64,000 nucleotides of DNA from Eledone cirrhosa. Its lineage: Eukaryota. Location of the stretch: the NCBI GenBank assembly GCA_964016885.1, contig OZ024750.1:50220001-50284000 (forward strand). The letters run 5' to 3'. The position numbers and the translations under genes are program-made. Shown piece by piece: positions 15,646-61,671 of the stretch (position 1 is its first letter; each line of letters opens with the position of its first letter). The notes under the pieces were generated by a model, which was not told where the DNA came from, searched no databases, and saw only the letters and a list, made by a program, of their open reading frames with translations.

Positions 15646-17520
15646 ATAATATAATTATGTTAAATTTCTAAAATTCAAATTTTATGAAGACAAATTTAAA
15701 GGATTTACAAAACCCGCGAAAGAAAGAAAATATAAATGTAATGTTCGATATCCCCACAAAGGTAATCTTTACCAAAAATTACTTATAATATTGACAACAA
15801 TTTCTATAGTATAATTTATGAGATATTTACAGTTATAACTATTAAGGAATTTATTGTTAAATAGTTAGAGTGCCTAAAGTATTAACAGGTCTTATAATTA
15901 AACTTAAAGGGGTCAGAGTTTTCAGCCATACATATATGTGTGCATTGATCATAATATACCAGGACTATAATTTATTATTTGTTCATATATTGTATTAAGT
16001 AAAGTATTATATAAGTTCTACCTTCCAGGGAAAACCAAACATTTATAATAATGTCATTTGAGTGTTTAAATTATTTATATAAATGTAACTACGATTATGT
16101 TATTACCCTAGATAAAAATGTTTGTACAAACTATATATAGATATACTAGGTATTAATGAAACGGTATACATTTAATTAAAAAAATAACGATTATAATCAT
16201 GGTTAGTAGTTTTACCTCCAGTTCAGTGGAGAAATAAACCAATATTTGTCAGCTATTATTGCTTGTTAACTATACATAAAAAGGCAAAAAAAAAAGCAAA
16301 CCGCCAATCCAACTTTCTGAGTCCCCAATAACCCTCTCAAAATGAGTAATATATATATATATATGTATAATATGTAAACGCATGAATGATCCATAGTTCA
16401 AATTAAAATCAGTACATTTACAGGTTAGATATCTAAATTATATATTTAAAACAAAGACAGAAAAATAAAGATCTGAATGAAAGTCAAAAATATCCAAAAT
16501 CTCTAGGGCATGCATATCTATCAAGTAAACAAGTTTTCAAAACAGTGTCATTCATTCAGACATTAATTCCATTATATATGATTAGAAGATAAAGCAATTA
16601 TTAAAGTTTTATAAGCCGTTATGACTTATATGTTCAACAGTTGATGATAGACGTCGAAAATCAGACTTGATTGCTTCCTGTTTTTTTCATGACTTTTTGT
16701 GAGGCTTGGAATGTAGATAAAGCTTTATGAAGGCAGTTTGAGAATAATTCACTTTTTTTGTTAAATAAGTTTTCATAATTATTAATTGTTAATAGAGTCT
16801 CCTTTGTACAGAGGCTGCATTTAATTGATATACTAGAGTTGACATAAACTCCACTATTACAAAACTTCGTCCAAAATATCGAGTATTTTAAATGTTTGTC
16901 TTTTGATGACCATATATGCTGTGATAAAGAAGTCGAATATTTCCTATTAGAATTCGAGAATGAGCATTTATGATTCACAAATCTTGCCTTAAATGTAGAA
17001 GAAGTTGCTCCTATGTGTTGTATGTGTTGTTATTTGTTTTTACTGTGCATTTATACATCAAATTTCTGTCCAAACAATTATTTTGCAGAGAGCAATCTGG
17101 TTTATTTCTACAATTACATTTTGATTTATTATTATTTATATTAACACTATTATTAATATCATTATGTTGATTTTGATTTTAAATCTTACTGTTTATTTTA
17201 GTGATGTTTTGGGCCATATTCATAGTTGTAGAATAAGATAATTTAGTGTATCTATTAAAAATGGAATGATATTTATGTTGACTAGGGAATGAGCTATCCA
17301 AAGCTTTAAATAATAGATTACCAATTGGTGTTCTTACTGAAGGGGGATGGGGCATACCATATAACTGATTTAGTTCTGGTTCTTTTCCCCGATTTATTCA
17401 CAGTATAGGTGTTTGAATTATAATTACTAGAATTTATAGAATTTCGTTTATATGTGCCATTATTTTTATCAGGATTAGAACTTGGACTATTATTGTTTAC
17501 ATATTCTACATTATTTTTAT

Positions 17521-17700
17521 TGGCAGTATCGGTAGAGGGTCGGACGCCATGCTTTCCAACATAGTTACGTCCCTTTACTATCTGAGTTCAAATCCCGCCG
17601 AGGTTGACTTTGCCTTTCATCCTTACGGGGTCGATAAAATAAAGTACCAGTAATGCACTGGGTAATTGCTGGCCTTGTGCCTAAAGTAGAAACAATTATT
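17521..17700 (+). mobile_element. Deu/Nin-domain SINE nested in the Penelope-like element
   Basis: Consensus-like SINE, slightly 5'-truncated. TSD ATTATTTTTAT. Confidence 0.92.
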
Positions 17701-18914
17701 TTTATAACCTGCCTTTTTTAGCGCATCATTGTAATATGATACATTTTCATCAAATATTGCTTTATTGGCAGATATTCAATAAATGCGTTTTTGCACTCTA
17801 TTTACAATTGCTTTTTTCACAGACTTAGGGTGATTGGAGTAATAACTAACATAATTTATGTTTTCATTGGGCTTATGGAAAGGGTAATAAAAACGAGTCT
17901 TTAAGTTAAACGTAACATCAAGGAAATTAACTATTTTGGTACCACTTTCTACTTCTAGTTTAAGGTCGTAAAGTTTAAAGAATTCAATTATATTTTTCTT
18001 TACTCTATTTAGTTCAATATTGTTGTGTTTGACAACCGTAAATAAATGATCGTCCCTATATAAACCACCGGTAATCTCCGGCAGTTTTCTATTTATCATA
18101 TTTAAGATGAATATCCCCAGAAGATCTGTGATTTGCGCTGAATTAGATGACCCCATGGTAATGTTAAAGTTTCTATTTCTATTTGAGCGGGTCCAATATT
18201 CATTGTCGAAGTTAATAAAAGTTCTTCTAGCAGTTAATATGATATCAATTTCATACGTAGTTAGATCAGTATGCTTGTAAGCCTATGATAGAGCCTTATT
18301 TAGTAGGTTGGGCGTTATGGAAGAATAATAGCTTGTTATGTCCATCTGGATGAATCTACGGTTTATATTATCATCTATATTCTTATACCATTCAATGACT
18401 TCGTTTGTATCCTTCTACAAGCTCAATTTAGACCTCAATTTCAGAGTAGTAGAATTCTATCAATAATATTTTTACTAATTACTCCAATATCCGATTTGGA
18501 TGGAGCAATCTTTTAGAGTTCTAAGGTATTGGTGACCTATATATGGGTTTTTCCTAAATTTAATTTTTTTAAGTATACCGAGGATTTCGGTTTCAAAATC
18601 CTCCAGGAGTTTGTTGTATGGAGAATTCTTTGTTGATTTAAATAAAGACTCGAAATGATTGTATATATATATATTTATAAACGTTTGTATTTGTAAAGCC
18701 AAAACAATGCAGGTATGGATATAGAATATAAATGAAAATGTAAAAGATATTGTTGACAATTAGTCTTTTACCTTAAATTTATTTAAATATCCTTAATTTT
18801 CGAGATAATATCTCTTCTTCGGATAGAAGTAAAGTTGTTAAACCAGCGTTCTACCATTTCCTGTCAGCATGACTTGGCAAGCTATTTAGAACGCTGGTTT
18901 AACAACTTTACTTC

Positions 18915-18949
18915 CCTCCGAAGAAGAGATATTATCTCGAAAATTAAGG
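18915..18949 (+). ncRNA. Minimal hammerhead ribozyme (inverted copy at about 18791-18825)
   Basis: cct-CCGAAGA-a gagat att atctc-GAAA-at-TA-agg. Confidence 0.6.
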
Positions 18950-19489
18950 ATATTTAAATAAATTTAAGGTAAAAGACTAATTGTCAACAATATCTTTTAA
19001 ATTTACATTTTTATTCTATGTCCATACTTGCATTGTTTTGGTTTTACAAATAAAAACGTTTATACCTCATTACACAATACTTCAAGTGAACTATAACTTC
19101 CTCCTATATATATATATATATATATATATAACTAGTGCGTGTATGTTTATATATATATATATATATATTATTATTATTATGTAATAAACAACATAAGGCA
19201 ATTATTCCATTTACCAGTGGTTTCTTAAAAGCAAAAGGTTTTGCTTTCAATCCTCAGAATGAAAAATCCTGGTTTGTTTATTGAATATGGATTCTAAAAA
19301 CAAAAATGCAATCTATATGAAAGTGAGGCTGGAAAAGGGAGAAGGAAAGGAAAAATAAAATAAAACTACACATGCAAACACACACAAAAAAACACAAAAG
19401 CATACTTACACACACATACATATATACATATATATAAATGTACGCATACACATATACACATATATATATAAAGCGTACACATACACACC

Positions 19490-22379: not shown

Positions 22380-22652
22380 GTAATCTCTGTCACATCTATT
22401 CCACTCTGTAAATACGAAGCTGTTGATGACAACATTAATATCCATGTATCTATATGATTGTTCATATGTCCAAACTTTGCTAGTCCTCCGAGGAAAGCAA
22501 ACGAACGTTTGGAAGAAACGATTGTCAGCAATAAAATGAGTTGAACATACTTTTGATTATTGTGTAATTTATACTCCTGCTCTGTAAATCATCTGATGTA
22601 TCTACATTGAGCTATTTTCTTACTGGTAATAAGGTAGTAATAAATTACTGAC
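22380..22652 (+). repeat. Solo diverged pLTR related to the intact Penelope-like element, with HHR-like motif
   Basis: CTGCTCTGTAAATCATCTGATGT..CATTGAGCTA..CTTACTGGTAATAAGGTAGTAATA matches 35330-35396. Motif CCGAGGA..caaacg aa cgtttg..GAAAC gatt GTC. Confidence 0.75.
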
Positions 22653-24128: not shown

Positions 24129-24189
24129 TATATCTAATAAACAAATCATTATTGGCAGAATCGGTAGAGGGTCAGACGCCATGCTTTAC

Positions 24190-25530
24190 ACACATATACA
24201 CATATTACATTTCCTTCAAACGTGTTGCTCATTTTCTTTCCTAACAAACTTTCCTGAGTTCTAATGATATATTTGTAAAAAGATACTTATACATTTATTC
24301 CTTAATGTCATTTCTATATATGCTGCACACTTTATGGAACTATTTTCTAGAAATAAACTTTTAAAGCATTTTTAAAAAGTTTAATCACTTTCTCGTGCCA
24401 GTACCCGATATAAACTACAGGGTTTGTCTCATCCAAACCATGAATCTAATAAAATCCAAATTTCCCAGTTGATAGTTGATATACCTGCTAATCTTTGGAC
24501 TCACACCCATTCTGAACATCACACATTTAATGTAATTGTCGTCAGAGTTACGGCTCTTTATAGTTTGAGTTCAAATCCTGCCGAGGTTGACTTTGCCTTT
24601 CATCCTTACGGGGTCGATAAAATAAAGTACCAGTAATGTACTGGGTAATTGCTGGCCCTGTGCCTAAAATAGAAAGAATTATTAAAGGTTTTCATATTCC
24701 GTTATTTATCCTGTGTGTGTTTTTCAGTAGTAGCTCTCCTCAAGCTATAAATCTATTAATATTTCGAGACCTTCACAGCCTTCTCCGAAGAATAACAACT
24801 GTTTGAGTTAATAGCATGCTCTTCGGATCAATTTCATAGATGTGGTCAATGAAATACACAAGGCCAAGAATTTTGGAAGAGAGAGAAAGTGGATTAAATT
24901 GAAAGCAGTGTATTACTGGTACTTTATTTTATCGTCCCCGTAATGATGAAAGGCAGAGCTAACAACGGCTGGATGTGAACTCAGTACGTAAAGGGCCGTA
25001 ACTATATGCCGCAAAACATTTTATGCAACCAATAATTGTTTCTACTTTTGGCCAGCAATTATCTCAGTGTATTACTGGTACTTTATTTTATCGACCACGT
25101 AAGGATGAAAGGCAAAGTCAACCTCGGCAGGATTTGAACTCAAAACATAAAGAGCCGTAACTCTGACGACAATTACATTAAATGTTCGATATCCAGAATG
25201 GGTGTGAGTCCAAAGATTAGCAGGTATATCAACTATCAACTGGGAAATTTGTATTTTATTAGATTCATGATTTGGATGAGACAAACCCTGTAGTTTATAT
25301 CGGGTACTGACACGCGAAAGTGATTAAACTTTTTTTTAATGCTTTAAAAGTTTATTTCTAGAAAATAGTTCCATAAAATGTGCAGCATATATAGAAATGA
25401 CATTAAGGAATAAATGTATAAGTATCTTTTTTACAAATATATCATTAGAACTCAAGAAAGTTTGTTAGGAAAGAACATTTCTTGATGGAGCAACACGTTT
25501 GAAGGAAATGTAATGTGTGTATAAGTGTGT
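24190..25530. repeat. Inverted repeat with arms of about 460-490 bp, each containing a truncated SINE (24545-24682 +, 25031-25162 -); another SINE (24856-25025 -) lies in the spacer
   Basis: ORFs 24424..24636(+) and 25072..25284(-) give nearly identical translations. Confidence 0.9.
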
Positions 25531-30553: not shown

Positions 30554-30619
<66 letters not shown>

Positions 30620-30665
30620 GGAATACTGTTGGGTTCTTGCTACAATGATTTCTATACTTTTCATT

Positions 30666-30762
<97 letters not shown>

Positions 30763-30763
30763 T

Positions 30764-30836
<73 letters not shown>

Positions 30837-31037
30837 TTAGTTATACTATTTATGGTTATGTAAACACAAAACCTTAAGCAGTTGTAAGTATTTTACACAC
30901 ACCCTAAATAGTGGTAGGCAGTAATGTATTACTACCTTATTACCAGTAAGTTAAGTAGCTCAATGTAAAAACATCAGATGATTTACAGAGCAGTTATATG
31001 AAATATAAGAATCAAAGAACTGTTCAAAACATTATTG

Positions 31038-31084
31038 TGCTTACAGCTGTTTCCTCCAAACCGAGGTTTGGATTCTTCGGAGCA
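31038..31084 (-). ncRNA. Minimal type I hammerhead ribozyme in pLTR of left copy
   Basis: Mirror of 39438..39484 with fully Watson-Crick stem I (tgct/agca). Confidence 0.8.
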
Positions 31085-32527
31085 ATTTATTAATGCATGG
31101 ACAGTTATATGACCTCCTTTTCAGCCGAGAGACATACCAATACATATTCAAACATTGATACATATTCAAACATTGTGGGTCAACATTCATTACAGAATTT
31201 AGAGTGGCAGTACACACTTCGAGATTACATTTATATTAATAGGTACAATCAAAAATCAAAGATATAGGTTAAAGTACAACATGAAGATAAGTGGTTATAT
31301 AGTGCAAATGTTATATGTGTGGCACGCATGTGCGTCTTGTTTATATAGTGTGGCAGAGAGATATGTGTGGTAGAGGCACTTAGGTAGGTAAATAAGAGTG
31401 TTAGGTTGGTAGATCTGGTGGCAAAGTCTTTATATGATTGATATAGTCTGTGTGTGGAGAAATATTATAAGCATTAAAGATAGTGCAAGCATTAAAAGTG
31501 TTATAAGTATTGGAGATGCACAGCGCAGGGATGTCAAGTAATTCATGTACTTCGGTATTTTCATGGTCAAGGGAGTGTATATTTCGATTATATGCCTTTC
31601 ACATAATCCACGACAATCCAGTTAGAGATCGTAGTCTGGTGTTCTTTAGTTCGATACAGGAGGTTGTTACGTTTCGAGAGACGCCATTGAATACCGGAAG
31701 TGTGTGTGTGGCTAAGGGGAGTTAATGCATGCGGGGAGGTAACTCTGGGGTTTCTATATCTAGCCATTAAAATATGTCTCAATATAGACCCTAAATTCTA
31801 TGGTGAGGTGCACCTTCCAAGAGAGACTTTTAAAGCATAAAGTGTACTAACTATAGAGTAGTTTAACTAAATTATGCTGAAGGTGATCATATTATTATTA
31901 GGGTGGATTAACCCATCTTAAGGTGCTACAAATGGAAATTATAGATGATGAGCGAGGATTCTAAATTAATGATCTCTATGGTTGTAGTCTGCTCATATGA
32001 CCAGGCGCGGTGATTGCAGGATTGCTTCAGGACCCAATGATCTCTGGTAAGATCTGGGTCATCGCTTGCTACATTGGATGTCGAAAGATAATCATCCCCA
32101 GGCAGGCCAAAGGTCAATCCGCAGTCCTCGCGACCCCTCTCTGACCGTCAGATCATCCATATACGTACAACCCGCACGGCAGTTGCATTGCATTCACTCA
32201 CTGCGTTCAGCAGCCTGGTCCTACTGGTCAACAGCGCTACTCGATTAAATCATTTTACATCTGTCTAAGGAAGGTGTTTCCTCTGCCCAACACCATCCAA
32301 CCGATCAATTCATGCTCAAATTACCCTTAGAGCGGTGTAGTGCCGTCCAGGTGGGTGGATGTTGTCACACCTGCCGTAGAGGTATAAATGGGTATTTTCC
32401 CTGCGAAGGGTTCCAGAGGGATGTCGTTGTTTGTGTTATAATGGATCAGCTAGTGTTGGGTATGTAGTATAGGGTGTGTCTCTGGTGTTTGATGCTAGAT
32501 GTGGTGTTAGGTTCCAGTCCGACATTG

Positions 32528-34984
32528 CTATATATGGGGCTTAAAGTTTTGGAAGGAATGTCTGAGGCGGTGCTGGCAAGTTGCAAACACCTCAGATTTT
32601 TTAAGTAGGTTACGGTTGGAGAAGATAATATTGTGTGTCTCTAGTATACAGAGGTTACAGAATTTATTAGGTGGTTTGTACGAGGTCGCGCTGCCTATCA
32701 CTTCCCATTTGAGTGTGTATGGTTTATTTTTAGATTTTAGATAGTGAATGTAGCTAGAAAGTGAGGTGGAGTTGGCTAGGCTGTGCTTTTTGAACGAGTG
32801 GATGTGCGAGTTATATCTAATTTTGAAGCAGTTAGAAGTGGAGCCTACATAGGTTTCTGAAGAGTTATTAGTCGTGACTGTGCATGAGTATATGACATCC
32901 TTGGTTAGGCATTTTTTATCTAAAGGGCAGGTTCTATTAGCTCTACAGTTACAATTATTCTGTGCGTTAGTCCGCTGGTTATAATGCAATGCGGAAGTCT
33001 GTGTGGTGGGTATAGGATTTTGGGTGTTCAGGTTGACAACCCTGGTGTTATTACTTATACTAGTGTTATTTCTATTGTTACTGCCGTTGCTATTGTTGCT
33101 TGCTACAGTGGTATTTAGAGGGTTTGCATCCCGTTGCGATTTTGTTTGTTGGAAGTAAGAACTAATTTTACTATTATTGCTGCTAGCTATGTGGTATGCT
33201 AAGTTAGGCGTCGTGGAGTATGAGATTTTAATGGTGTTTTTGTTTAAGAGGTTGTGGTACTTGTGTCCTAGAGGGAAGTTTTTATCTAGTAGTGAGAAGA
33301 AAGCCCTAGGTATGTTGGTGGAGACATTTAGGTTGAAAGGAGGGTTGAAAAATGTATTATTTCTTCTTCTATTTTTGCTTTTAGTGTTTGGTGTGTTGCT
33401 TCCTCCTAAGGCCTCACAGTAGTTTCCATGGTAATGGTTACTTCCGGTGGCACCCTCCGCTTTGGTGTACTTGTGGTTGCTATTCCTATTATTAGATTTC
33501 CTCATGGACATGTTGTGCGAGATGATGTTGTAGCTATGTGTTTTCTTAGGTAGGAACTCAATTTCTATATTATGGCCGGAGCTAGCTAATGCTTGATTGT
33601 AATATTGTGAGTTTTTGCTAAATATGTTTGCGTCATAGGACAGACTAGAGATTCTATTGGACACCCCCTTAGAGATAGAGTTTAATATTGATCTAGGGTG
33701 ATTAGACTTGGTATCTACGTAAATAAGTTTCTCATTAGGCTTATGGAAGGGTGTATATATTTTTGAGTCTAGGTATAGTGTGGCGTCTAGGAAGTTAACA
33801 TTTTTAGTGTTTTTGTCCATGGTGATACTAAGGTTAAAGTTTTTGAATGTCTTATGCAGTTGTTTTCTAGTTCTTTCTATATTAAATTTTTTATATTCTA
33901 TGAGTAGAAGTGCATCATCGCGGTACAAACCACCGTTGAGGTAAGGGAGGTCTTTATGGATTTCATTGAGGAGGTATAGGCCGACCAAATCAGTGACCTG
34001 CGCCGAGTCACTAGATCCCATGGTTATGTCGAAGTTGTTGTGCGTATCCTTGCGTGTCCATAGTTGGTCCTCGAAGGTGATTATGGTTTTACGGGCCGCA
34101 AGGATGACATCAACCTGGGCTCTAGTCAGGTCGCTATTGGTCATGGCCATGATAAGTGCCTTATTTAATAGGATAGGGGAAATAGAGGTGTAGTATGAAT
34201 TGATATCAAATTGAATAAATTTTTTGTTCTTATTATTCTTGATATCCTTAAACCATTCAATTACTTCACCCGTATTTCCCCATTGTTTAAGGTGTATCTT
34301 GTGTTTAATTTGTGGGATGATTTTATCCAAAATCTTCTTGCTGATAATACCAATGTCGGACCTGGAAGGGCAGATAAGTCTTATCGTGGGGTTGCTGATG
34401 AAGTTCTCCTTATGGTCCTTCAGAGAGAATCTAGGGGGGTTCGGAGTGAAAGGTTGTGTATGCCTCTGTAGTCCTAGTTTAGACACTATATTATAACCCT
34501 CTACATTAATATCTTCTAAGTTTTTCAAGGTGGTTTTTTTGTAGCTTTTATGTAGTTCATTATATATAAACTTTCTATAAGTAATATAATCTAGGCTGTA
34601 TATGTTATTAGTTTTATCTGCGTGTACAATAATTTTATTACTAGTTTTGAATCCACTAATAGAAGTGTTAAGTTTGTTTAAGAAGGTGTTGCTTCTAATA
34701 TGGTGCTTATTGTATTTAATGTTCTTAACTAGTTTAACTAGGTCATTTTCAAAGGAGTTAAGTAGAGTGTTATGAGGGGGGCTTTTAAAGGTTTTAAAGC
34801 CGAAGGAGTCAAAATTGTTAGTATTATTCAAGTTGTTAGATTTGTTTCTATCATAATGGAATGTCCTCCATCTCACTCTATTGATAAATGAATTTACACT
34901 GTTGATCAGCAATTTCTCATATGTATTCCTGGATGGTATTGGTATGTTCTTGGTTGACATGGGGAGTTGGTCTTTGATTAGCAT
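32528..34984 (-). CDS. Second intact Penelope-like ORF (818 aa), inverted copy
   Basis: Translation is identical to 35535..37994 except for one missing residue (LLKKSE vs LLNKKSE). Confidence 0.96.
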   Translation of the reverse strand: MLIKDQLPMSTKNIPIPSRNTYEKLLINSVNSFINRVRWRTFHYDRNKSNNLNNTNNFDSFGFKTFKSPPHNTLLNSFENDLVKLVKNIKYNKHHIRSNTFLNKLNTSISGFKTSNKIIVHADKTNNIYSLDYITYRKFIYNELHKSYKKTTLKNLEDINVEGYNIVSKLGLQRHTQPFTPNPPRFSLKDHKENFISNPTIRLICPSRSDIGIISKKILDKIIPQIKHKIHLKQWGNTGEVIEWFKDIKNNKNKKFIQFDINSYYTSISPILLNKALIMAMTNSDLTRAQVDVILAARKTIITFEDQLWTRKDTHNNFDITMGSSDSAQVTDLVGLYLLNEIHKDLPYLNGGLYRDDALLLIEYKKFNIERTRKQLHKTFKNFNLSITMDKNTKNVNFLDATLYLDSKIYTPFHKPNEKLIYVDTKSNHPRSILNSISKGVSNRISSLSYDANIFSKNSQYYNQALASSGHNIEIEFLPKKTHSYNIISHNMSMRKSNNRNSNHKYTKAEGATGSNHYHGNYCEALGGSNTPNTKSKNRRRNNTFFNPPFNLNVSTNIPRAFFSLLDKNFPLGHKYHNLLNKNTIKISYSTTPNLAYHIASSNNSKISSYFQQTKSQRDANPLNTTVASNNSNGSNNRNNTSISNNTRVVNLNTQNPIPTTQTSALHYNQRTNAQNNCNCRANRTCPLDKKCLTKDVIYSCTVTTNNSSETYVGSTSNCFKIRYNSHIHSFKKHSLANSTSLSSYIHYLKSKNKPYTLKWEVIGSATSYKPPNKFCNLCILETHNIIFSNRNLLKKSEVFATCQHRLRHSFQNFKPHI

Positions 34985-35534
34985 ATTGGCAATATTATAT
35001 GTCAGCTCAACGATATGGAGCAGTTAATAGTATTAGTTATACTATTTATGGTTATGTAAACACAAAACCTTAAGCAGTTGTAAGTATTTTACACACACCC
35101 TAAATAGTGGTAGGCAGTAATGTATTACTACCTTATTACCAGTAAGTTAAGTAGCTCAATGTAAAAACATCAGATGATTTACAGAGCAGTTATATGAAAT
35201 ATAAGAATCAAAGAACTGTTCAAAACATTATTGTGCTTACAGCTGTTTCCTCCAAACCTCGGTTTGGAGGAAACAGCTGTAAGCACAATAATGTTTTGAA
35301 CAGTTCTTTGATTCTTATATTTCATATAACTGCTCTGTAAATCATCTGATGTTTTTACATTGAGCTACTTAACTTACTGGTAATAAGGTAGTAATACATT
35401 ACTGCCTACCACTATTTAGGGTGTGTGTAAAATACTTACAACTGCTTAAGGTTTTGTGTTTACATAACCATAAATAGTATAACTAATACTATTAACTGCT
35501 CCATATCGTTGAGCTGACATATAATATTGCCAAT

Positions 35535-37994
35535 ATGCTAATCAAAGACCAACTCCCCATGTCAACCAAGAACATACCAATACCATCCAGGAATACATAT
35601 GAGAAATTGCTGATCAACAGTGTAAATTCATTTATCAATAGAGTGAGATGGAGGACATTCCATTATGATAGAAACAAATCTAACAACTTGAATAATACTA
35701 ACAATTTTGACTCCTTCGGCTTTAAAACCTTTAAAAGCCCCCCTCATAACACTCTACTTAACTCCTTTGAAAATGACCTAGTTAAACTAGTTAAGAACAT
35801 TAAATACAATAAGCACCATATTAGAAGCAACACCTTCTTAAACAAACTTAACACTTCTATTAGTGGATTCAAAACTAGTAATAAAATTATTGTACACGCA
35901 GATAAAACTAATAACATATACAGCCTAGATTATATTACTTATAGAAAGTTTATATATAATGAACTACATAAAAGCTACAAAAAAACCACCTTGAAAAACT
36001 TAGAAGATATTAATGTAGAGGGTTATAATATAGTGTCTAAACTAGGACTACAGAGGCATACACAACCTTTCACTCCGAACCCCCCTAGATTCTCTCTGAA
36101 GGACCATAAGGAGAACTTCATCAGCAACCCCACGATAAGACTTATCTGCCCTTCCAGGTCCGACATTGGTATTATCAGCAAGAAGATTTTGGATAAAATC
36201 ATCCCACAAATTAAACACAAGATACACCTTAAACAATGGGGAAATACGGGTGAAGTAATTGAATGGTTTAAGGATATCAAGAATAATAAGAACAAAAAAT
36301 TTATTCAATTTGATATCAATTCATACTACACCTCTATTTCCCCTATCCTATTAAATAAGGCACTTATCATGGCCATGACCAATAGCGACCTGACTAGAGC
36401 CCAGGTTGATGTCATCCTTGCGGCCCGTAAAACCATAATCACCTTCGAGGACCAACTATGGACACGCAAGGATACGCACAACAACTTCGACATAACCATG
36501 GGATCTAGTGACTCGGCGCAGGTCACTGATTTGGTCGGCCTATACCTCCTCAATGAAATCCATAAAGACCTCCCTTACCTCAACGGTGGTTTGTACCGCG
36601 ATGATGCACTTCTACTCATAGAATATAAAAAATTTAATATAGAAAGAACTAGAAAACAACTGCATAAGACATTCAAAAACTTTAACCTTAGTATCACCAT
36701 GGACAAAAACACTAAAAATGTTAACTTCCTAGACGCCACACTATACCTAGACTCAAAAATATATACACCCTTCCATAAGCCTAATGAGAAACTTATTTAC
36801 GTAGATACCAAGTCTAATCACCCTAGATCAATATTAAACTCTATCTCTAAGGGGGTGTCCAATAGAATCTCTAGTCTGTCCTATGACGCAAACATATTTA
36901 GCAAAAACTCACAATATTACAATCAAGCATTAGCTAGCTCCGGCCATAATATAGAAATTGAGTTCCTACCTAAGAAAACACATAGCTACAACATCATCTC
37001 GCACAACATGTCCATGAGGAAATCTAATAATAGGAATAGCAACCACAAGTACACCAAAGCGGAGGGTGCCACCGGAAGTAACCATTACCATGGAAACTAC
37101 TGTGAGGCCTTAGGAGGAAGCAACACACCAAACACTAAAAGCAAAAATAGAAGAAGAAATAATACATTTTTCAACCCTCCTTTCAACCTAAATGTCTCCA
37201 CCAACATACCTAGGGCTTTCTTCTCACTACTAGATAAAAACTTCCCTCTAGGACACAAGTACCACAACCTCTTAAACAAAAACACCATTAAAATCTCATA
37301 CTCCACGACGCCTAACTTAGCATACCACATAGCTAGCAGCAATAATAGTAAAATTAGTTCTTACTTCCAACAAACAAAATCGCAACGGGATGCAAACCCT
37401 CTAAATACCACTGTAGCAAGCAACAATAGCAACGGCAGTAACAATAGAAATAACACTAGTATAAGTAATAACACCAGGGTTGTCAACCTGAACACCCAAA
37501 ATCCTATACCCACCACACAGACTTCCGCATTGCATTATAACCAGCGGACTAACGCACAGAATAATTGTAACTGTAGAGCTAATAGAACCTGCCCTTTAGA
37601 TAAAAAATGCCTAACCAAGGATGTCATATACTCATGCACAGTCACGACTAATAACTCTTCAGAAACCTATGTAGGCTCCACTTCTAACTGCTTCAAAATT
37701 AGATATAACTCGCACATCCACTCGTTCAAAAAGCACAGCCTAGCCAACTCCACCTCACTTTCTAGCTACATTCACTATCTAAAATCTAAAAATAAACCAT
37801 ACACACTCAAATGGGAAGTGATAGGCAGCGCGACCTCGTACAAACCACCTAATAAATTCTGTAACCTCTGTATACTAGAGACACACAATATTATCTTCTC
37901 CAACCGTAACCTACTTAACAAAAAATCTGAGGTGTTTGCAACTTGCCAGCACCGCCTCAGACATTCCTTCCAAAACTTTAAGCCCCATATATAG
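35535..37994 (+). CDS. Intact Penelope-like element ORF: reverse transcriptase + C-terminal GIY-YIG endonuclease (819 aa), probably Naiad-like
   Basis: RT motifs FIQFDINSYYTSI, TMGSSDSAQVTDLVG, GGLYRDD and VNFLDATL. Asn-rich linker, then CNCx5CPx4C, VIY..YVGST..FKIRYNSH and C-terminal CxxCxxE..LN..SE..CQH. No CxxC between GIY and YIG. The clade call comes from recalled motif layout, not a phylogeny. Confidence 0.96.
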   Translation: MLIKDQLPMSTKNIPIPSRNTYEKLLINSVNSFINRVRWRTFHYDRNKSNNLNNTNNFDSFGFKTFKSPPHNTLLNSFENDLVKLVKNIKYNKHHIRSNTFLNKLNTSISGFKTSNKIIVHADKTNNIYSLDYITYRKFIYNELHKSYKKTTLKNLEDINVEGYNIVSKLGLQRHTQPFTPNPPRFSLKDHKENFISNPTIRLICPSRSDIGIISKKILDKIIPQIKHKIHLKQWGNTGEVIEWFKDIKNNKNKKFIQFDINSYYTSISPILLNKALIMAMTNSDLTRAQVDVILAARKTIITFEDQLWTRKDTHNNFDITMGSSDSAQVTDLVGLYLLNEIHKDLPYLNGGLYRDDALLLIEYKKFNIERTRKQLHKTFKNFNLSITMDKNTKNVNFLDATLYLDSKIYTPFHKPNEKLIYVDTKSNHPRSILNSISKGVSNRISSLSYDANIFSKNSQYYNQALASSGHNIEIEFLPKKTHSYNIISHNMSMRKSNNRNSNHKYTKAEGATGSNHYHGNYCEALGGSNTPNTKSKNRRRNNTFFNPPFNLNVSTNIPRAFFSLLDKNFPLGHKYHNLLNKNTIKISYSTTPNLAYHIASSNNSKISSYFQQTKSQRDANPLNTTVASNNSNGSNNRNNTSISNNTRVVNLNTQNPIPTTQTSALHYNQRTNAQNNCNCRANRTCPLDKKCLTKDVIYSCTVTTNNSSETYVGSTSNCFKIRYNSHIHSFKKHSLANSTSLSSYIHYLKSKNKPYTLKWEVIGSATSYKPPNKFCNLCILETHNIIFSNRNLLNKKSEVFATCQHRLRHSFQNFKPHI

Positions 37995-39437
37995 CAATGT
38001 CGGACTGGAACCTAACACCACATCTAGCATCAAACACCAGAGACACACCCTATACTACATACCCAACACTAGCTGATCCATTATAACACAAACAACGACA
38101 TCCCTCTGGAACCCTTCGCAGGGAAAATACCCATTTATACCTCTACGGCAGGTGTGACAACATCCACCCACCTGGACGGCACTACACCGCTCTAAGGGTA
38201 ATTTGAGCATGAATTGATCGGTTGGATGGTGTTGGGCAGAGGAAACACCTTCCTTAGACAGATGTAAAATGATTTAATCGAGTAGCGCTGTTGACCAGTA
38301 GGACCAGGCTGCTGAACGCAGTGAGTGAATGCAATGCAACTGCCGTGCGGGTTGTACGTATATGGATGATCTGACGGTCAGAGAGGGGTCGCGAGGACTG
38401 CGGATTGACCTTTGGCCTGCCTGGGGATGATTATCTTTCGACATCCAATGTAGCAAGCGATGACCCAGATCTTACCAGAGATCATTGGGTCCTGAAGCAA
38501 TCCTGCAATCACCGCGCCTGGTCATATGAGCAGACTACAACCATAGAGATCATTAATTTAGAATCCTCGCTCATCATCTATAATTTCCATTTGTAGCACC
38601 TTAAGATGGGTTAATCCACCCTAATAATAATATGATCACCTTCAGCATAATTTAGTTAAACTACTCTATAGTTAGTACACTTTATGCTTTAAAAGTCTCT
38701 CTTGGAAGGTGCACCTCACCATAGAATTTAGGGTCTATATTGAGACACATTTTAATGGCTAGATATAGAAACCCCAGAGTTACCTCCCCGCATGCATTAA
38801 CTCCCCTTAGCCACACACACACTTCCGGTATTCAATGGCGTCTCTCGAAACGTAACAACCTCCTGTATCGAACTAAAGAACACCAGACTACGATCTCTAA
38901 CTGGATTGTCGTGGATTATGTGAAAGGCATATAATCGAAATATACACTCCCTTGACTATGAAAATACCGAAGTACATGAATTACTTGACATCCCTGCGCT
39001 GTGCATCTCCAATACTTATAACACTTTTAATGCTTGCACTATCTTTAATGCTTATAATATTTCTCCACACACAGACTATATCAATCATATAAAGACTTTG
39101 CCACCAGATCTACCAACCTAACACTCTTATTTACCTACCTAAGTGCCTCTACCACACATATCTCTCTGCCACACTATATAAACAAGACGCACATGCGTGC
39201 CACACATATAACATTTGCACTATATAACCACTTATCTTCATGTTGTACTTTAACCTATATCTTTGATTTTTGATTGTACCTATTAATATAAATGTAATCT
39301 CGAAGTGTGTACTGCCACTCTAAATTCTGTAATGAATGTTGACCCACAATGTTTGAATATGTATCAATGTTTGAATATGTATTGGTATGTCTCTCGGCTG
39401 AAAAGGAGGTCATATAACTGTCCATGCATTAATAAAT

Positions 39438-39484
39438 TGTTCCGAAGAATCCAAACCTCGGTTTGGAGGAAACAGCTGTAAGCA
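39438..39484 (+). ncRNA. Minimal type I hammerhead ribozyme in pLTR
   Basis: tgtt-CCGAAGA-a-TCCAAACC tc GGTTTGGA-g-GAAA-C agct G-TA-agca. Palindromic stem III ACAGCTGT, U4C core variant. Confidence 0.8.
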
Positions 39485-39515
39485 CAATAATGTTTTGAAC
39501 AGTTCTTTGATTCTT

Positions 39516-39564
<49 letters not shown>

Positions 39565-40829
39565 ATTTATATATATATATTTATATATATATATTTATAT
39601 ATTATATTATATTTATATATTATATTATATTTAGAGTTTAAACTCAAAGTCATTTACAATTAATCAGCTCAAAGAAAGAAGCATTTCCGAGCAGTGAAAT
39701 ACAAGTTAATATATATTAATATATGATAAACACATACGTGTTTGTATAGTAAGAGACAAAGTTAGCTAGAATGAAATAAACTAATTAAAATGAATACAAT
39801 TTGTCTGTCTCGATATAAGTCAATAAAGACAAGCTTATATTGGCAAAAGCCGTGATTCCTGGACAAATTTAAATTTCAAAATCCAAACCTGCTCCGTAGA
39901 TGAATTTGAACTTCGAAACCTAAATATGTTTCGCAACGATGGTATAAAAATTGAAATATAAAAAAATTGAAATATACAAAGTGAAATATTCAAATCGTCT
40001 GTGCTTATCAACAGGAATCCAGTAAAATTAGTACATTTCATCTCCAAAAATGTTGCAGCACTGATTCACACGTCGTATAATCAGCTATACTAGCCATCCC
40101 ATACTCCCGGTGCTAGACATAACAGCCGTTTATATGGGATTACAAATTAGCTCTACAGTTAAGGAGCAATTATATTATATTATATTTAGAGTTTAAACTC
40201 AAAGTCATTTACAATTAATCAGCTCAAAGAAAGAAGCATGTCCGAGTCATTGTGCGTTTCTTTTCTATCTGTGTTCACTAGTTTGTGTTTATGTGTGTTT
40301 GTTGTTATTGTACTTGTGTATATTTATTTATATTTACCTTAGGTCAGTATTGTGTGCTTGGGCATGGTTGTTGTTATTATTCTTATTCCATTCGTTTTTT
40401 CCATTCAACTTTGGTTTTCTTAGTTCTATTTCAGTTGCTTCTTTGATTTGTCTCCCTGTTGAGTCAGTTCTATATTTAGATATTATTTTAATTTCTGTGG
40501 TGTCTATATTACCATAATGTCTTTGTCTGGCGTGTTCTTATAGCACCGAACTGTCTTGTTGTCCTTGTAGTTTCCCCCAGTGTTGGTCCATTTTTCTCCT
40601 ATGCTTCGAGCTCGCTCACCTATGTATGTCGTTGTCATTTTTCTGCAAGTACCCTAAGTACATCTTAGGCTATAGACTACATTTCTAGTTCTACAATCTA
40701 TATGAGGATTCATTGTACATATAACACATTTCTTATTAGTACCGTGGGTTTCTTAAAGGTGTATCTCTTGCTAATGAGGGATGTCATGGTAATTCCTGGC
40801 TCTTCTACAAATTTAATCTTTTTATGTGG

Positions 40830-46140: not shown

Positions 46141-47705
46141 TTTGAGCATGGGTTGGTTGTTTACCGACACCTCTGTTTGCAGATTGGAGCACTCAACGAA
46201 GTACGCAGGTTGGTTTGTAACTCCGGAGTAATGTAAAATAAGTAAGTCAAACCTGTTAAATTTGGCTTCGTTTTTTTATAAATTATCTGCTATATATATC
46301 TCAGTGACAAATATTATTTGCTGTGACCTCATCAGGCAGTACGAATTAATGCAGAAAAAACAGGTAAACATGTTGTTGAAATGCGTTCCACTCAGTCAAT
46401 TCATCGATATGTCCAGCTCCTGGCTGTGTTGTTAGTCATCCGAGGAACTGGAATCATATGTGCTAGAACAAACGAATTTCAGCGTCAGAGGATACGGTCG
46501 TACCCCATTGGTCAGTTGTCATACCTCTCCCAGCCGAAAGTCTATAGAAATTGTTCAGAAACAAGTCAACCTGTTATAGTTGTTTTTATCAGAATGTTTA
46601 AGTCCAACTGACCTCCTTTACTGTGGTGGTACTGGTAGTGGTACTAAGAAGTCAGCCAGCAGGTCAACCTTAGTAGGCTGCGGCTATGATCGGAAGAATG
46701 TATGTGTAGACCGGCATCTATCCTGCCACCGCGTAGTGGGGGGAGGGGCAAACAAAAAATGCGTGTGTGTTACAACCAATAGGATAAAAAACACAAAAAA
46801 AATTAGAAAAATATAAAATGAAATAAAAAACCTATGTCAGAATCCAGAAATGTGCAGAATTACATTCTTATTTTAGCATAAAGTACATACGTGTAATTGT
46901 CCGTCAACGCATACCTTTGCGCGTGCACACGTATAAACACAGGCTCGAGTGCATTCACCTCTCTACGTCCACACAGTCCAAGAAAAGATGGGTGCATTTT
47001 AAAACAAATGAAGTAATAGTGGAGTAAACAATTAAAAAAAAAGTTATTTTTTTATTTTTTTATTTTTTTATTTTTTTATTTTTTAGTACTTTATGCTAAA
47101 ATAGGAATTGTAATTCTTTACACTTCTGGATTCTGAGACATGTTTTTTATTTCATTTTTTTTTAACGGTGGTAACACACGCGCAATTTTTGTTTGGCACC
47201 CCCATCACGTGAAGTGGTGGAAGGATAGATTCCAGTTTACACACATAAATTCTTCCGATTTATAGCAAGAACCTACTAAGGTTGACCTGCGGCTGACCTC
47301 TTAACACCACTACCACTACCACCACAGTAAAGGAGGTCAGCTGTACTTAAACATTCTGGTAAAAACAACTATAACAGGTTGACCTGTCTCTGAAGAATGT
47401 CTATAGACTTTCGGCTGGGGAGTGGTATGATAACTGACCAATGGGGTACGAGCGTATCCTCTGACGCTGAAATTCGTTTGTTCTAGCACATATGATTCCA
47501 GTTCCTCGGAGGTCTAACAACACAGTCAAGAGCTGGACATATCGATGAATTGACAGATTGGAACACATTTCAACAACATGTTTAACTGTTTTTTCTACAT
47601 TAATTCGTACAGCCTGATGAGGTCACAGCCAATAATAGCTGTCACTGAGATATATATAGCAGGGAATTTATAAAAAGCTAAGCCAAATTTAACATGTTTG
47701 ACTAC

Positions 47706-47712
<7 letters not shown>
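46140..47712. mobile_element. Inverted pair of non-coding HHR-bearing units (arms about 46240-46887 and 47082-47710); HHRs at 46287-46339(-) and 47612-47662(+)
   Basis: CTGATGA-ggtcacagc..gtcact-GAGA-tatata-TA-gcag in both arms. The arms are visibly diverged from each other. Confidence 0.8.
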
Positions 47713-49409: not shown

Positions 49410-51800
49410 GATACATTTCTTTATTAGCCACAGGGACACACAAGAGGGGGACAAATACAAATGGGGAGTTTACATACAGGAATATGAAAATAAAACTATT
49501 AATAAAATAACAAATAACAATTGATATCCCCAATAGGGGGGAGGTGTTAGGTAGGGGTTGTACACACACCGAAAAAAATGTACAACCCTCATCTCCAGGA
49601 GCAACAAGAGTGAGTACTCCCTTCCTCTCTTTCTCTTTTTCCTCAACCTACAGGCTTATATAGAGAGAAGGCCCAACCACTCGGGCCACTTTGCACATTC
49701 ACTCACCTTTTATAAAATTTGCTGGGATGCAGCACCTCTCTCTCCATCCTGATTCTTCTTCCAAAATGATATTTGAAAAAACGACTCAGTTGCTCACCAG
49801 AGAGAAAGGTGTCTGACCTCAGCCCTTTTAACCTCGTCCACCATATAACCTCTTTCACGATAGCCATAACACATAGGAAAAGCGCTTCTCCCTCGTTTTT
49901 GAAGGAGGGTGGCGGTTTGATCATGACAATGGATTCGGTGGTCAACCGGATTTGTCCCAGCCGCAACAATAGTCGTTCTACATAGCCCCACAGGTCGGTA
50001 ACGCCCGGGCAGTGTACAAATGCTTGCGCCACGGTTTCCTCGTCGCGCACGCATCGCATCTCGGACAGATCTTTTTCGAAGGGTCCCTACCCGGGCGCCC
50101 GTGTCTGTAGAGCTTGTCTCGAAATGGTAGAGCTCCTCGGTAGCACTGCCAGGCCAGGGACTTTGGGACGTTGTCCATTGGTCCCGGGCGGAAGGTCCTG
50201 CCGAGCAGACTCGCCAGTTCGTCCTCCTCTACGCCTAGAGATTCTCCGAGCGTGTCGTCGCACTTGCTGCGGACCAACCCTCTATAGAATGTCGAAGTGG
50301 AGTCTCCACTGATCGCCGGGTCCGTTTGCCAGAGGACTGTGAGCGCCTGAGCACATTCGATGTGCCAGTCGCCCATTTTCCTCGGTCTTTGCTTGACCTA
50401 GGACTGGTGAGGAATACGTGGAGCTGCCGCAGCCTGAGCGCGTGTTTGTGCATCATCAGCCACGGCATCCCCAGCTCTCCGTTGGAAGGGTGTTGGCAGC
50501 AGATAGATCTTCTCACCAAAAGAGCCCGTTTCTTCCAAAGGAATTGGAAGAGCGCGCGCACCATTTTGGTGAGCGTTTTGGCTGGACAAGGCACGACGGT
50601 CAAGCGGTAGTAGATGACGAACGCTATAAAAGTGTTCGCCAACTCCGCTCGACCTTTCAATGATAGTTTGCACTCGGCCCACTTCTGGGTGAGTGCAAAC
50701 ACCTTGGCCGTCACTTCGTTCCAGTTCTTCTCCACCTGGAGATCCGGACCAAACCAGACCCCGAGCAGTTTACCGGTGCTTGAGTCCAGCGTCCGACGAC
50801 GTCATCGGAAGGCATCGGTTTGCCCCTCCACGTCCCGAGTTGCAAACCGACGGATTTGTCCCATTTCAGCTTCTCTCCTGTGAACCTTTCGTATTCCTCC
50901 AGTAAGGTGCCGACCTCCCCGATTTGCGAGGTGCTGGACACCATTACTGTCACATCGTCGGCCTAGGCCGACGCCGCTTTTCGCAGTCCCGGTTCCAAAG
51001 AGATGCCCTGCAATAACTCTAACTTCCGCAGTAGTGGCTCGAGAGTCAGTACGTACAAAAGGGAGGAGAGAGGGCATCCCTGTCGATGGATCGCCTGATA
51101 TGGAACGGCTCCGAGAGGTAGTCGTTCACCTTGACACTTGAGCAGTTGTTGCTGCTGTGCATGGCAGCAATCCAGCCCCTGAACACGGGTCCGAAGACTG
51201 CCTGGTCAAACCTATCGAAAGCCTTAAACTGATCCAAGTTGATTAGGACCTCACCGAAGCCGGGTTTACACCCCACCCTCTATATGATGTATCGCATGAG
51301 GTGGAGGTAGTCGCGTATGGACCTGGTCGGGAATGCGCATATCTGCGCTTCTCCCACCAGGTTTGCGCTTCTCCCACCAGGTTTTCGGCGACAAGCGCCA
51401 GCCTCTTTGCCAACACCTTGGCCAAAATCTGTAACTTTGTGTTGAGCAGAGTTATGGGCCGGAAGTTGCCTATGTCATCCCCCTTGTTCTCGTCCTTCCT
51501 GACAAACGTGATTACGCCCTTGGTCACAGAACTTGGAATTCTCCCGTTCTGCTGCCAGTTACAGTAGACCGCGTCCAGGAGACCGGAGCACAAGTTTGGC
51601 ATTCCTACGTAAACTGCATAGGGTAGACCGTCGAGACCTGGAGATTTGCGTTTGCCGCATTGGATCAGCGCGTCCACTATCTCAGCGGCAGAAATCGGCC
51701 TGTCGCAAACTTGGCCTCGCTGTCCGAGAGTCGCGGTAGGCCGTCGAGATATGGACCGAAATCGATAGCCCCTCCCGGCGCTCCGCCCTGCCCTACCAGA
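49410..51800 (-). mobile_element. Degraded L1/Tx1-type non-LTR retrotransposon (RT + C-terminal CCHC), 5'-truncated, GC-rich
   Basis: KSPGLDGLP, NFRPITLLNTKLQILAKVLAKRL, LDQFKAFDR, RQGCPLSPLLYVLTLEPLL, A*ADDVTV and CPRC..EETVAQAFVHC. AATAAA near 49425. Confidence 0.92.
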
Positions 51801-52248
51801 TCCTTTTCGCTCTTATTTCTATCTAACACTAATTATTTACTAAAACCTATCGAGTCTAATCTAACTCCTCTCTTGAGAGAGTACCCCTATATGTTGTTGA
51901 CAATGGCCCCCGTCAAGTGCTGCTTAACTAAAGTGCTAATCCGTCTACCGTAGGATTTGCATGTCGGTAACGACAAGTTCGGCTTCCAGTAGCCGGGTCC
52001 CTGTCTATGGGTTTTGTCCAGGTTGACTAAGCAGGTCACTAATTTGTGATCTGAATAGGTAACCACAGATAGTCCCTAAGTCAGGTGTGTGTATCGATCA
52101 TTGAATGCCGTTTGCGGACATTTTATTTAGTGTCTTGAAAATATTATATATATAGATATCAAGATGAATGGACCAGTTATTTTTTATCTAAAGACATTTA
52201 TCCTATGTTATCCCTCCCTTCCCCTCAATCTATTTTATTTCTCATTTT

Positions 52249-53762: not shown

Positions 53763-54045
53763 TATATATATTGGTAAACGGAATAGAAAATGCTGACAAA
53801 TTGTTCACAGTGAAAAATAGTTTAATTAGGAATAAGTGAGAATTAGTAATTGTATTGGAGCGTCCGTGATGTTTGCTCAGAGCAAACATCACGGACGCTC
53901 TATCGAAAAATGCGTAACCGGTAAAACTTAAAACCAAAACTGAATACTAACAAATACAATTACTAATTCTCACTTATTCCTAATTAAACTATTTTTCACT
54001 GTGAACAATTTGTCAGCATTTTCTATTCCGTTTACCAATATATAA
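53763..54045. repeat. Perfect inverted repeat (about 95-bp arms) enclosing a second 21-bp perfect hairpin
   Basis: Outer arms 53763-53857 / 53952-54045. Inner GAGCGTCCGTGATGTTTGCTC-A-GAGCAAACATCACGGACGCTC (53858-53900). A related fragment lies at 2532-2612. Confidence 0.9.
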
Positions 54046-54989: not shown

Positions 54990-55059
<70 letters not shown>

Positions 55060-55065
55060 CATTAT

Positions 55066-55714
55066 AAAGAAAGAAGAAACATTAGATATAATTAATAAGA
55101 TATACCATACCCAAATTCCTTCATCACTCCTCGACTACGTAGTTTCGTGGCATATTATGGAAAAACACTACATCACAGAGATATAGTATTCGTGTGAGGT
55201 TTGCCGACTTATCAAGAGGATACCTCATTAAGAGTTTCAAAACACATCCGTAGGACGCGAGATAGAATGCCGAAATGCGGAGGGGGAGTCAATCACGAGA
55301 TACAGCGGTCAAGAAACAGAGCTAAGCCTCTTACAAACATTCTATTTCGCAAACTACGGATGTGTTTTGAAACTCTTAATGAGGTATCATCTTGACAAGT
55401 CGGCAAACCTCACAAAAATACTATATCTCTGTGATGTAGTGTTTTTGCATAATATGCCACGAAACTACGAAGTCGAGGAGTGATGAAGGAATTTGGGTAT
55501 GGTATATCTTATTAATTATATCTAATGTTTCTTCGGTCTTTAAAATGTATTATGTAGCTCTGATACTGAATCAATCTAATCCATTCGGATTATTTTGTCC
55601 CAGTTATTCATAGAGCAACAAGGGTTGAGTTTGGCACAACACAAATTCAGGGATATATGTGGATATATACATGCATATGTATGTGTCCGCATGTATCTAT
55701 GTATTTCTTAATAT

Positions 55715-58127: not shown

Positions 58128-58130
<3 letters not shown>

Positions 58131-58810
58131 GTATAAAAAAACGAAAACTCTGTGATGCATCTGGACTCGGTTTATTGCGTGTTACAATTGTTTCGCCGGC
58201 AGGTAGCTCGAGACATGATCACTGTATGGATCTGGCTGATTCTACGGCTGCAGGTTCCTTCGGACACGGGCACTTCGTTCGGAGCAAATTTTCTCACTGG
58301 AGTGTTATCGTCAAAAAACACCTTCAAAACACATTTTCCACTCTTGTCATGCCATTGGCTGTTGTTAGTCTATGTCATCTTAAGTTCTGGTCACTATTTA
58401 CTGCTACACGGGTCCTCAGCCATTTTCCGTCCGACACACTTCAATGGAGCCACAAATAACGGTAAATAGTGATCAGAACTTAAGATAACGTAGAATAACA
58501 ACGGCCAATGGCATGACAAGAGTGGAAGATGTTTTTTGAAGGTGTTTTTATCGATAACACCCCAGTGAAATTTGGTCCGAACGAACTGCCCGTGTCCGGA
58601 GGAACCTGCGGCCGTAGAATAAGCCAGATCCATACAGTGATCACGTCTCGAGCTACCTGCCGGCGAAACAATTGTAACACGCAATAAACTGAGTCCAGAT
58701 GCATCACAGATTTTTCGTTTTTTATACTATCCACACTCTGCTCTGTATGAATATTAAGTGCTAATTTTGGCATACCGCCTATCGAAGCACAATAGCTACC
58801 ATTATACACA
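58128..58810. repeat. Inverted duplication (58128-58402 / 58461-58730) carrying an atypical hammerhead-like motif at 58591-58681
   Basis: cgtgt-CCG(A/G)AGG..gccg..cggc-GAAAC aatt GTA-acacg. Confidence 0.75.
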
Positions 58811-58811
58811 C

Positions 58812-59486
<675 letters not shown>

Positions 59487-60525: not shown

Positions 60526-60585
<60 letters not shown>

Positions 60586-60588
60586 ACA

Positions 60589-61671
60589 ATATATTTAGAA
60601 ACACACAGATACAAGCGGACACACACATATACATGAATGCATCCACATCCAACCGTGAGTTAATGGTGCCAACCTTACCGATGTTGCTCAATGAATGACT
60701 GGGACAGACCAATCCGGTTTAACTAGACTGAACTAGTATCAGAGTTAAAAATACATTATGAAGAGAGAAGAAACATTTAGATATAATTAGTAATAAAATG
60801 TATCATACAAAACTGCTCCTAGATTCCTCGACTACGTAGTTTCGTGGCATAAACAAAAACAGTACATCATAAAGATATAGAGCCTTTGCGAAGTCTGCCG
60901 ACTTATCAAGAGGATACCTCATGATAAGTCGGCAGACCTCGCAAAGGCTCTATATCTTTATGATGTACTGTTTTTCTTTATGCCACGAAACTACGTAGTC
61001 GAGGAATCTAGGAGCAGTTTAGGTATGATACATTTTATTACTAATTATATCTAAATGTTTCTTCTCTCTTCATAATGTATTTTTAACTCTGATACTGGTT
61101 CAGTCTAGTTCAACCGGATTGGTCTGTCCCAGTCATTCATTGAGCAACATCGGTAAGGTTGGCACCATTAACTCACGGTTGGATGTGGATGCATTCATGT
61201 ATATGTGTGTGTCCGCATGTATCTGTGTGTTTCTAAATATATTGTTCATAACTCCCTCTGGTCGAGTAATCTTTGAAGTGTGGTGACTGCTGGAAAGCTG
61301 CTATTACTCATATATCTCGCCTCCTTTACCACCTCTTCTACGGCTTCGATATAAATACCCCCTCCGCCTCCGTGGTATTTCTTCGGGGTTATAAGAGGCT
61401 TAGCTCTGTTTCTCGACCGTTATATCGCGTGACTATCTCCCCCTCCTCCTTTTGGGATTCTTTCTCACGTCGTGTAGACGCGTTCTTGAAGCTAGTAAAA
61501 TGAGGTATCCTCTTGATAAGTCGGCAGACCTCGCAAAGGCTCTATATCTTTATGATGTACTGTTTTTGTTTATGCCACGAAACTACGTAGTCGAGGAATC
61601 TAGGAGCAGTTTAGGTATGATACATTTTATTACTAATTATATCTAACTGTTTCTTCTCTCTTCATAATGTA
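60589..61671. mobile_element. 592-bp unit family, copy 3: inverted arm + 1.27 tandem units, three HHR motifs
   Basis: TGATAAGTCGGCAG at 60922 and 61514 (592-bp period). 60589-60908 mirrors 60922-61243. Confidence 0.88.
61508..61597 (+). ncRNA. Hammerhead ribozyme with U3:A8 core and long stem II insert (inverted copy 60825-60914)
   Basis: tcctc-TTGATAA-gt c ggca..tgcc ac-GAAA-c tacgta g-TC-gagga. Confidence 0.75.

Follow-up and report, generated by a model that had tools for sequence, protein, structure and literature searches.

A head-to-head pair of almost complete Penelope-type elements of a young family, joined at stem II of a hammerhead motif in Eledone cirrhosa

We analyzed a 64,000-nt stretch of contig OZ024750.1 from the Eledone cirrhosa assembly GCA_964016885.1 (hereafter, the window). 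Self-comparison returned one 8.5-kb palindrome (30995-39527), the arms of which (30995-35258 and 35261-39527) are 99.84% identical over 8,536 columns and mirror each other around the TC at 35259-35260, as an initial annotation of the sequence had described. The locus consists of a pair of almost complete copies of a young Penelope-type element (PLE), set head to head in a TA repeat (Table 1). Unit coordinates are counted from the G after the loop (position 1), with a period of 4,199 nt and the predicted ribozyme cut between 21 and 22. The palindrome centre reads TTTCC TCCAAACC TC GGTTTGGA GGAAA and lacks the CCGAAGA half of the hammerhead core, also as annotated. At its outer end the left arm continues for 164 nt (30831-30994) that the right arm lacks; both ends meet (TA)n, within which a target-site duplication is unreadable. 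Three substitutions separate the arms (31774/38748, 31565/38957, and 31082/39440), and the sole indel between them is a 3-nt deletion at 32602 in the left arm. Each of these four changes, two per arm, was found in one arm only among the copies first sampled, although the 39440 allele gained one further match in a later comparison. We infer that the four changes arose during or after insertion. The window also holds a 200-N scaffold gap (10452-10651).

Table 1. Features of the palindrome and its flanks (positions in the window).
Feature	Positions	Strand	Basis
(TA)n target microsatellite, left side	30556..30830	.	sequence
Left arm: one 4,199-nt unit + pLTR; stops at the long end (unit position 232)	30831..35258	-	
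164-nt tail (unit 69-232), outer end of left arm only	30831..30994	-	
Complete minimal type-I hammerhead motif, left arm; predicted cut 31042/31041	31038..31084	-	motif reading
3' untranslated region, left copy	31085..32527	-	
Left ORF, 818 aa from ATG 34984, RT + C-terminal GIY-YIG; deletion at 32602	32528..35023	-	
Junction: stem II TCCAAACC-TC-GGTTTGGA, axis 35259-35260, loop in right-arm sense	35251..35268	+	
Right arm: one unit + 68 nt; stops at the short end (unit position 68)	35261..39527	+	
TAACTGCTC motif, short end (unit 67), candidate RT start signal (putative role)	35327..35335	+	
Second TAACTGCTC motif, long end (unit 233), putative role	35493..35501	+	
Right ORF, 819 aa from ATG 35535, motif set complete	35496..37994	+	
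3' untranslated region, right copy	37995..39437	+	
Complete minimal hammerhead motif, right arm; predicted cut 39480/39481	39438..39484	+	motif reading
(TA)n target microsatellite, right side	39528..39632	.	

Both reading frames are open (832 and 831 aa from stop to stop), in agreement with the initial annotation. Its description of two intact elements was overstated, however, since the left ORF has lost Asn795 (numbered from the first ATG) because of the deletion at 32602; this residue is present in the right ORF and invariant in 114/114 homologues with that column. We take Asn795 to matter for GIY-YIG activity. The left copy is probably endonuclease-defective, and only one of the two copies looks intact. 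A Pfam and PDB sequence search with the ORF gave no direct RT or GIY-YIG match. Among 8,000 candidates, 303 homologues were recovered at E 1e-20, some of which carry PF00078 and PF01541, and motifs were read against the best 120 of these 303. Read in this way, the single right ORF carries an RT followed by a C-terminal GIY-YIG domain (YRDD at 354, YVG, Y699/Y712-x-G714, R723, and E782), together with an RWK-type motif (RWR) at 38, DKT at 123, CxCx5C at 678, and CxxC at 776 and CxH at 804 around conserved E and N residues.

The same order of domains and the same motifs (RW[KR], DKT, CxCx5C, and CxxC/CxH around E and N) are described for the C-terminal EN+ PLEs of the Hydra clade, as are a pLTR hammerhead motif, (TA)n insertion, a 5' inverted copy, and a one-sided tail (Craig et al. 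2021, PMC8557442, accessible text). Insertion into (TA)n was found at both ends here and at the outer ends of other fetched loci. The element thus appears to be Penelope-like with Hydra-clade motifs, a placement by motif content. Compared with that account, the unit here is longer (4.2 kb versus generally <3 kb, a tendency in the paper rather than a criterion), the tail is 164 nt versus 30-40 nt, and the inverted copy is full length versus 5'-truncated.

A complete hammerhead motif lies at 39438-39484, and the palindrome axis falls on the stem II loop of the incomplete copy of this motif at the centre, as first annotated; we noted a second, previously unnamed one at 31038-31084 on the minus strand. 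Rfam returned no hammerhead model match at the locus, only hairpin-driven miRNA matches below threshold, hence the ribozyme call depends on motif reading. The putative core reads CCGAAGA ... GAAA ... UA against CUGAnGA ... GAAA ... UH, a single change at position 4. The folded stem II has 7 bp and a loop of 4 nt (CUCG) rather than the 2-nt TC loop initially given. The private C>T at 39440 creates a U-G pair in stem I of the right-arm motif. Consistent with the minimal type-I hammerheads of metazoan PLEs (Cervera and de la Pena 2014, PMC4209133, accessible text), helix II falls within the 7-8 bp range, helix I has 4 bp (4-5 bp in the criteria for this type), and helix III is palindromic and suited to dimers (ACAGCUGU self-duplex, -11.1 kcal/mol). 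Unlike those hammerheads, the motif has a CCGAAGA core (C at position 4) and lacks the usual G10.1-C11.1 pair closing helix II, A and G being apposed on the flanks of stem II instead. Among the short-looped inverted repeats of the unit, stem II is the best.

Both arms read through two predicted cut sites and so point to a template RNA that was uncut or re-ligated, supporting the initial suggestion of an uncleaved or re-ligated template. A circular RNA, as proposed for PLEs in PMC4209133 (accessible text), is allowed and not required; linear uncut RNA spanning one unit and the pLTR suffices. Repeats within arms longer than one unit showed 19 differences over 9,156 sites, of which 12 come from one locus (L091), and 63 shared non-majority bases, a near-identity compatible with both a circular and a tandem template. 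Elsewhere in the genome, L030:75-2239 (G000:C2:284.70 Mb) holds retrozyme-like head-to-head arrays of a 507-nt deleted derivative (unit 4062-373) that keep the same 68 and 232 ends; these tandem arrays allow for circles without proving them.

Next, we examined the family across the 3.0-Gb genome, which contains 1,923 exact copies of the hammerhead 37-mer. An ordered sample was made of the 66 loci holding the first 100 matches on contig 1; it requires one intact hammerhead, and hence misses the shortest stubs. These comprised 39 two-armed head-to-head, 19 one-armed, and 8 complex loci. In addition, a census in which junctions were sought between a pair of exact anchors at 43-58, allowing gaps of 0-190, gave 106 matches at 105 loci, all of which were fetched and read (L163 and L164, with the same junction 21 kb apart, were both kept). 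In all 39 two-armed contig-1 insertions, one arm stops at 68 and the other at 232, and 101 of the 105 census loci likewise pair one short and one long end. The unit has only two TAACTGCTC motifs, one at each fixed end (67 and 233). Short reiterated TTTCATA(TA) units were seen at the position-68 end of L045, L052, L056, L068, L107, and others, and resemble repeated re-priming at initiation.

The arms of the locus differ by 0.07%, compared with a median of 0.87% to other loci. This closeness, together with the instability of long palindromes, might suggest a later rearrangement, whereby hairpin repair or arm conversion made a perfect palindrome of an ordinary asymmetric insertion by extending or homogenising it. 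We consider such an origin improbable, given that both outer ends follow the family rule and that in 26 of 28 loci the two arms resemble each other more closely than the median comparison with other loci, with a tie in the other two. Moreover, apparently private variants shared by the two arms were rejected as a sign of arm conversion for the most part, since they mark a subfamily represented by another 22 or more identical stretches. One shared variant, at unit 897, is present in both arms here and in 0/13 sister stretches covering the site.

Is the stem II axis peculiar to this locus? An exact or one-mismatch pattern found it at 12 loci (0 control matches), and the junction census added three, for 15 loci in total; 14 of these are ~300-bp stubs with the same 68/232 ends and different flanks. 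Within the census, the stem II axis occurs at 13/105 loci, and another nine have one arm ending at the stem II loop. Stem II, which the initial annotation had proposed as the joining point, is therefore a true and recurrent hotspot, but neither the sole nor the main one. The largest cluster lies at unit 28-32, in what is predicted to be the outer portion of stem I (69/210 arm ends, including a shared 28/31 junction at 13/105 loci), and another 22 ends lie at the predicted cut. The stem III palindrome (13-20), which is perfect over 8 nt and lies immediately before the cut on its upstream side, served as axis at 0 loci by an exact pattern. Unit -238 was rejected as a hotspot axis (one locus only), and a fixed RNA start at -127 found little support (two loci by pattern, plus L274). 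Double full-length head-to-head copies with other axes do exist at L274 and L069; the former (G000:C4:30476000-30485999) is a near-perfect ~9 kb palindrome with its axis at unit -127, off the ribozyme, and its right arm is clipped by the fetched stretch.

At the predicted cut, 22 ends fall at 20-23 versus 14 at 3-19 (binomial p 3e-8, for bins chosen after the data were seen and non-independent arm ends; by locus, 16 versus 12). Junctions with both arms ending at 20-23 more often carry inserted bases (4/6 versus 20/99 elsewhere, Fisher p 0.024). Judged from sequence, clustering at the predicted cut in both this family and the second one described below is an indirect sign of cleavage in vivo. 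The cluster could also reflect RT stalling at the folded ribozyme; run-off from a cut end is favoured because of the inserted bases and the same position in two families.

The recurrence of the axis also bears on whether the palindrome is an assembly or library artefact made of fold-back chimeric reads. No axis-spanning read or contig was found in four runs, which were uninformative (three contig sets that drop rare forms and one RAD-seq set, with zero read depth left of 35249 in all four), and the window does have a scaffold gap elsewhere. Nevertheless, the locus is bordered by unique sequence on either side, its unequal ends obey the family rule, and it carries four private differences; the same axis recurs at 14 other loci with different flanks, and opposite-strand joints of the family are present in Illumina RAD reads of other samples. 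An artefact is accordingly the least probable of the explanations considered here.

For replication we took a second family from a 440-bp palindrome in the same window (58907-59348), a PLE-like head-to-head stub, both arms of which carry a different hammerhead motif (CTGAAGA core). A search along the same lines yielded 78 loci, 50 of them among the matches listed. Among these 50, the stem II axis was found in 11, and both arms ended within 2 nt of the predicted cut in 7, five of which have inserted bases. A short and a long end were paired in 29/29 fetched loci (the first 15 plus 14 hand-picked ones).

The initial annotation had offered fold-back or cDNA-cDNA annealing at the ribozyme hairpin. 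In its pure form, the first option involves one nucleic acid that folds back or primes itself, and no second primer; self-priming has been proposed for inverted PLE copies in PMC3846280 (accessible text). Such an origin would account for the excess of symmetric junctions: arms level within 3 nt in 4 of the 39 contig-1 loci versus 0.36 expected by permutation (p 0.00035), and symmetric junctions in 54/105 census loci versus 17 expected. However, when a single cDNA folds back, the second arm is necessarily contained within the first and the loop has the sense of the long arm. Such an arm cannot yield the 18/39 loci in which the short arm reaches further 5' (the long arm does so in 17) or the six with non-overlapping arms, the other 33 being overlapping. 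The loop should always belong to the long arm, yet it does so in 11/26 stem II loci: the native loop is on the long arm in seven and the short arm in eight of the 15 loci of this family, and in four and seven, respectively, of the 11 in the second. At the present locus the loop is on the short arm, which is unable to template the 164-nt tail. Furthermore, many symmetric junctions have a 2-nt overlap, leaving no room for a hairpin. Family data therefore disfavour simple fold-back, which we regard as very improbable, and favour annealing between cDNAs.

Two arms of common origin, two fixed outer ends in (TA)n, a stem II junction, and recurrence in two families are observed. Two primings are needed because the short arm is often the longer-reaching one, arms are sometimes non-overlapping, and loop ownership is mixed; similarly, end-to-end joining of cDNAs must exist because symmetric junctions with 0-1-nt loops occur. 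We consider it probable that the palindrome arose in one retrotransposition event, in which two target-primed cDNAs from both ends of the break were joined through stem II. The endonuclease likely cuts both strands of the (TA)n tract, after which a separate cDNA would be primed from each free end, starting at one or other of two fixed positions on the RNA (unit 68 or 232). An uncut or re-ligated RNA would then be copied beyond one unit, the two cDNAs would be joined by TCCAAACC-GGTTTGGA annealing via the self-complementary stem II, and host repair may fill in the remainder. Predicted folding energies are -17.3 kcal/mol for the two paired cDNA ends versus -4.6 kcal/mol for a single stem II hairpin. 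Junctions in the 39 contig-1 loci have 0-12 nt of overlap in 31 and inserted bases in eight.

Some counts tell against this two-cDNA model, namely the one-armed and complex loci on contig 1 (19/66 and 8/66), and the finding that the only long-armed locus among the 105 in the census is the present one, with none pairing a long and a short arm. Long-long without long-short is not well predicted by independent stopping, and under direct joining would mean that a single RNA set the limit of both cDNAs. A variant with two primings, in which one long cDNA folds at stem II and copies itself, and the new strand is then caught by a shorter cDNA from the other end, accounts for the lack of long-short loci, the exact symmetry, the unit 897 variant, and either loop orientation, and the hairpin it needs is possible at -4.6 kcal/mol. 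It leaves unexplained the symmetric junctions with 0-1-nt loops (13/105 at 28/31, and others). The two private sites per arm are neutral between the models. Arm-end positions are correlated across the 39 loci (rho 0.48, p 0.002), and this correlation and the shared 897 variant fit a shared RNA end and a snap-back copy equally. Weighing these points, we judge the self-copying variant a serious alternative, albeit one considerably less probable than direct joining of two target-primed cDNAs.

Other parts of the window contain comparable structures. A 390-bp palindrome (18676-19064) has a CCGAAGA-core hammerhead-like motif in both arms and adjoins decayed PLE ORF pieces (16706-18509) with 48% identity to the ORF of the 30831-39527 palindrome. 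Seven further palindromes or inverted pairs (60583-61248, 11203-11565, 55051-55556, 53776-54033, 58130-58728, 24188-25530, and 46236-47711), several of which begin at (TA)n, are probably more two-armed stubs; a simple core pattern gave no convincing hammerhead in these seven. An older pLTR relative (22486-22650, 78-80% identity) has a CCGAGGA-type core. Decayed reverse-transcriptase-like pieces at 50235-51812 on the minus strand are presumably those of a non-LTR reverse transcriptase.

Inverted PLE copies, a one-sided tail, and palindromic junctions are already published (PMC8557442 and PMC3846280, accessible texts), and inverted Penelope copies feed siRNAs (PMC3681739, accessible text). The inverted-pLTR Penelope of Adineta vaga (Arkhipova et al. 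2013, PMC3846280) is likewise head to head, with palindromes at the junctions (one of 18 bp lies at the 5' end of the pLTR), and one of its pLTRs has a tail. Its accessible text invokes self-priming on an antisense template and draws no ribozyme link for the junctions, whereas our data favour two target-primed cDNAs. Junction hotspots are absent from the accessible Hydra-clade account (PMC8557442), and the accessible part of a preprint (bioRxiv 10.64898/2026.07.22.740005) has nothing on junctions. In the literature searched, strict pairing of one start per arm and hotspots at stem II and the cut are unreported; subscription papers and supplements may differ.

Two primings accord with in vitro transposition by PAc, in which the PLE protein cuts and extends both target strands and RT starts at two internal sites bounding the tail (Frangieh et al. 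2024, PMC11167929, accessible text). That study also predicts a dimer, and finds uncut RNA to be the main template and ribozyme cleavage dispensable. Unlike in PAc, each arm here has one of the two starts, and junctions are concentrated at the predicted cut; the accessible text on PAc reports no strand-specific start difference and no cut-ending reads. In L1 twin priming (PMC11702581, accessible text), both break ends also prime cDNA, and junctions show microhomology or inserted bases. The second L1 start, however, is variable, internal, and beside the first cDNA end, with little overlap, whereas here neither start varies and the overlap between arms reaches 4.3 kb.

More broadly, PLE priming might be obligatorily double-ended, with one RNP starting a cDNA from each end of the break at two fixed signals on one RNA, and the junctions a fossil record of RNA state, with those at the cut site marking cleavage in vivo, those at stem II an uncut or circular RNA, and the present locus the full-length extreme. 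We advance this generalization tentatively, with somewhat less than even confidence. The origin of PLE inverted structures and the one-sided tail, and hammerhead cutting in vivo, are described as open in the accessible texts of PMC8557442 and PMC11167929; PMC4209133, in its accessible text, gave no in vivo cleavage evidence. The arrangement at this locus is a known one taken to an extreme, and the value of the locus lies in the family statistics that it prompted. With a young high-copy family, an apparently intact ORF, two mapped starts, and three junction hotspots, both questions should be testable in an existing assay.
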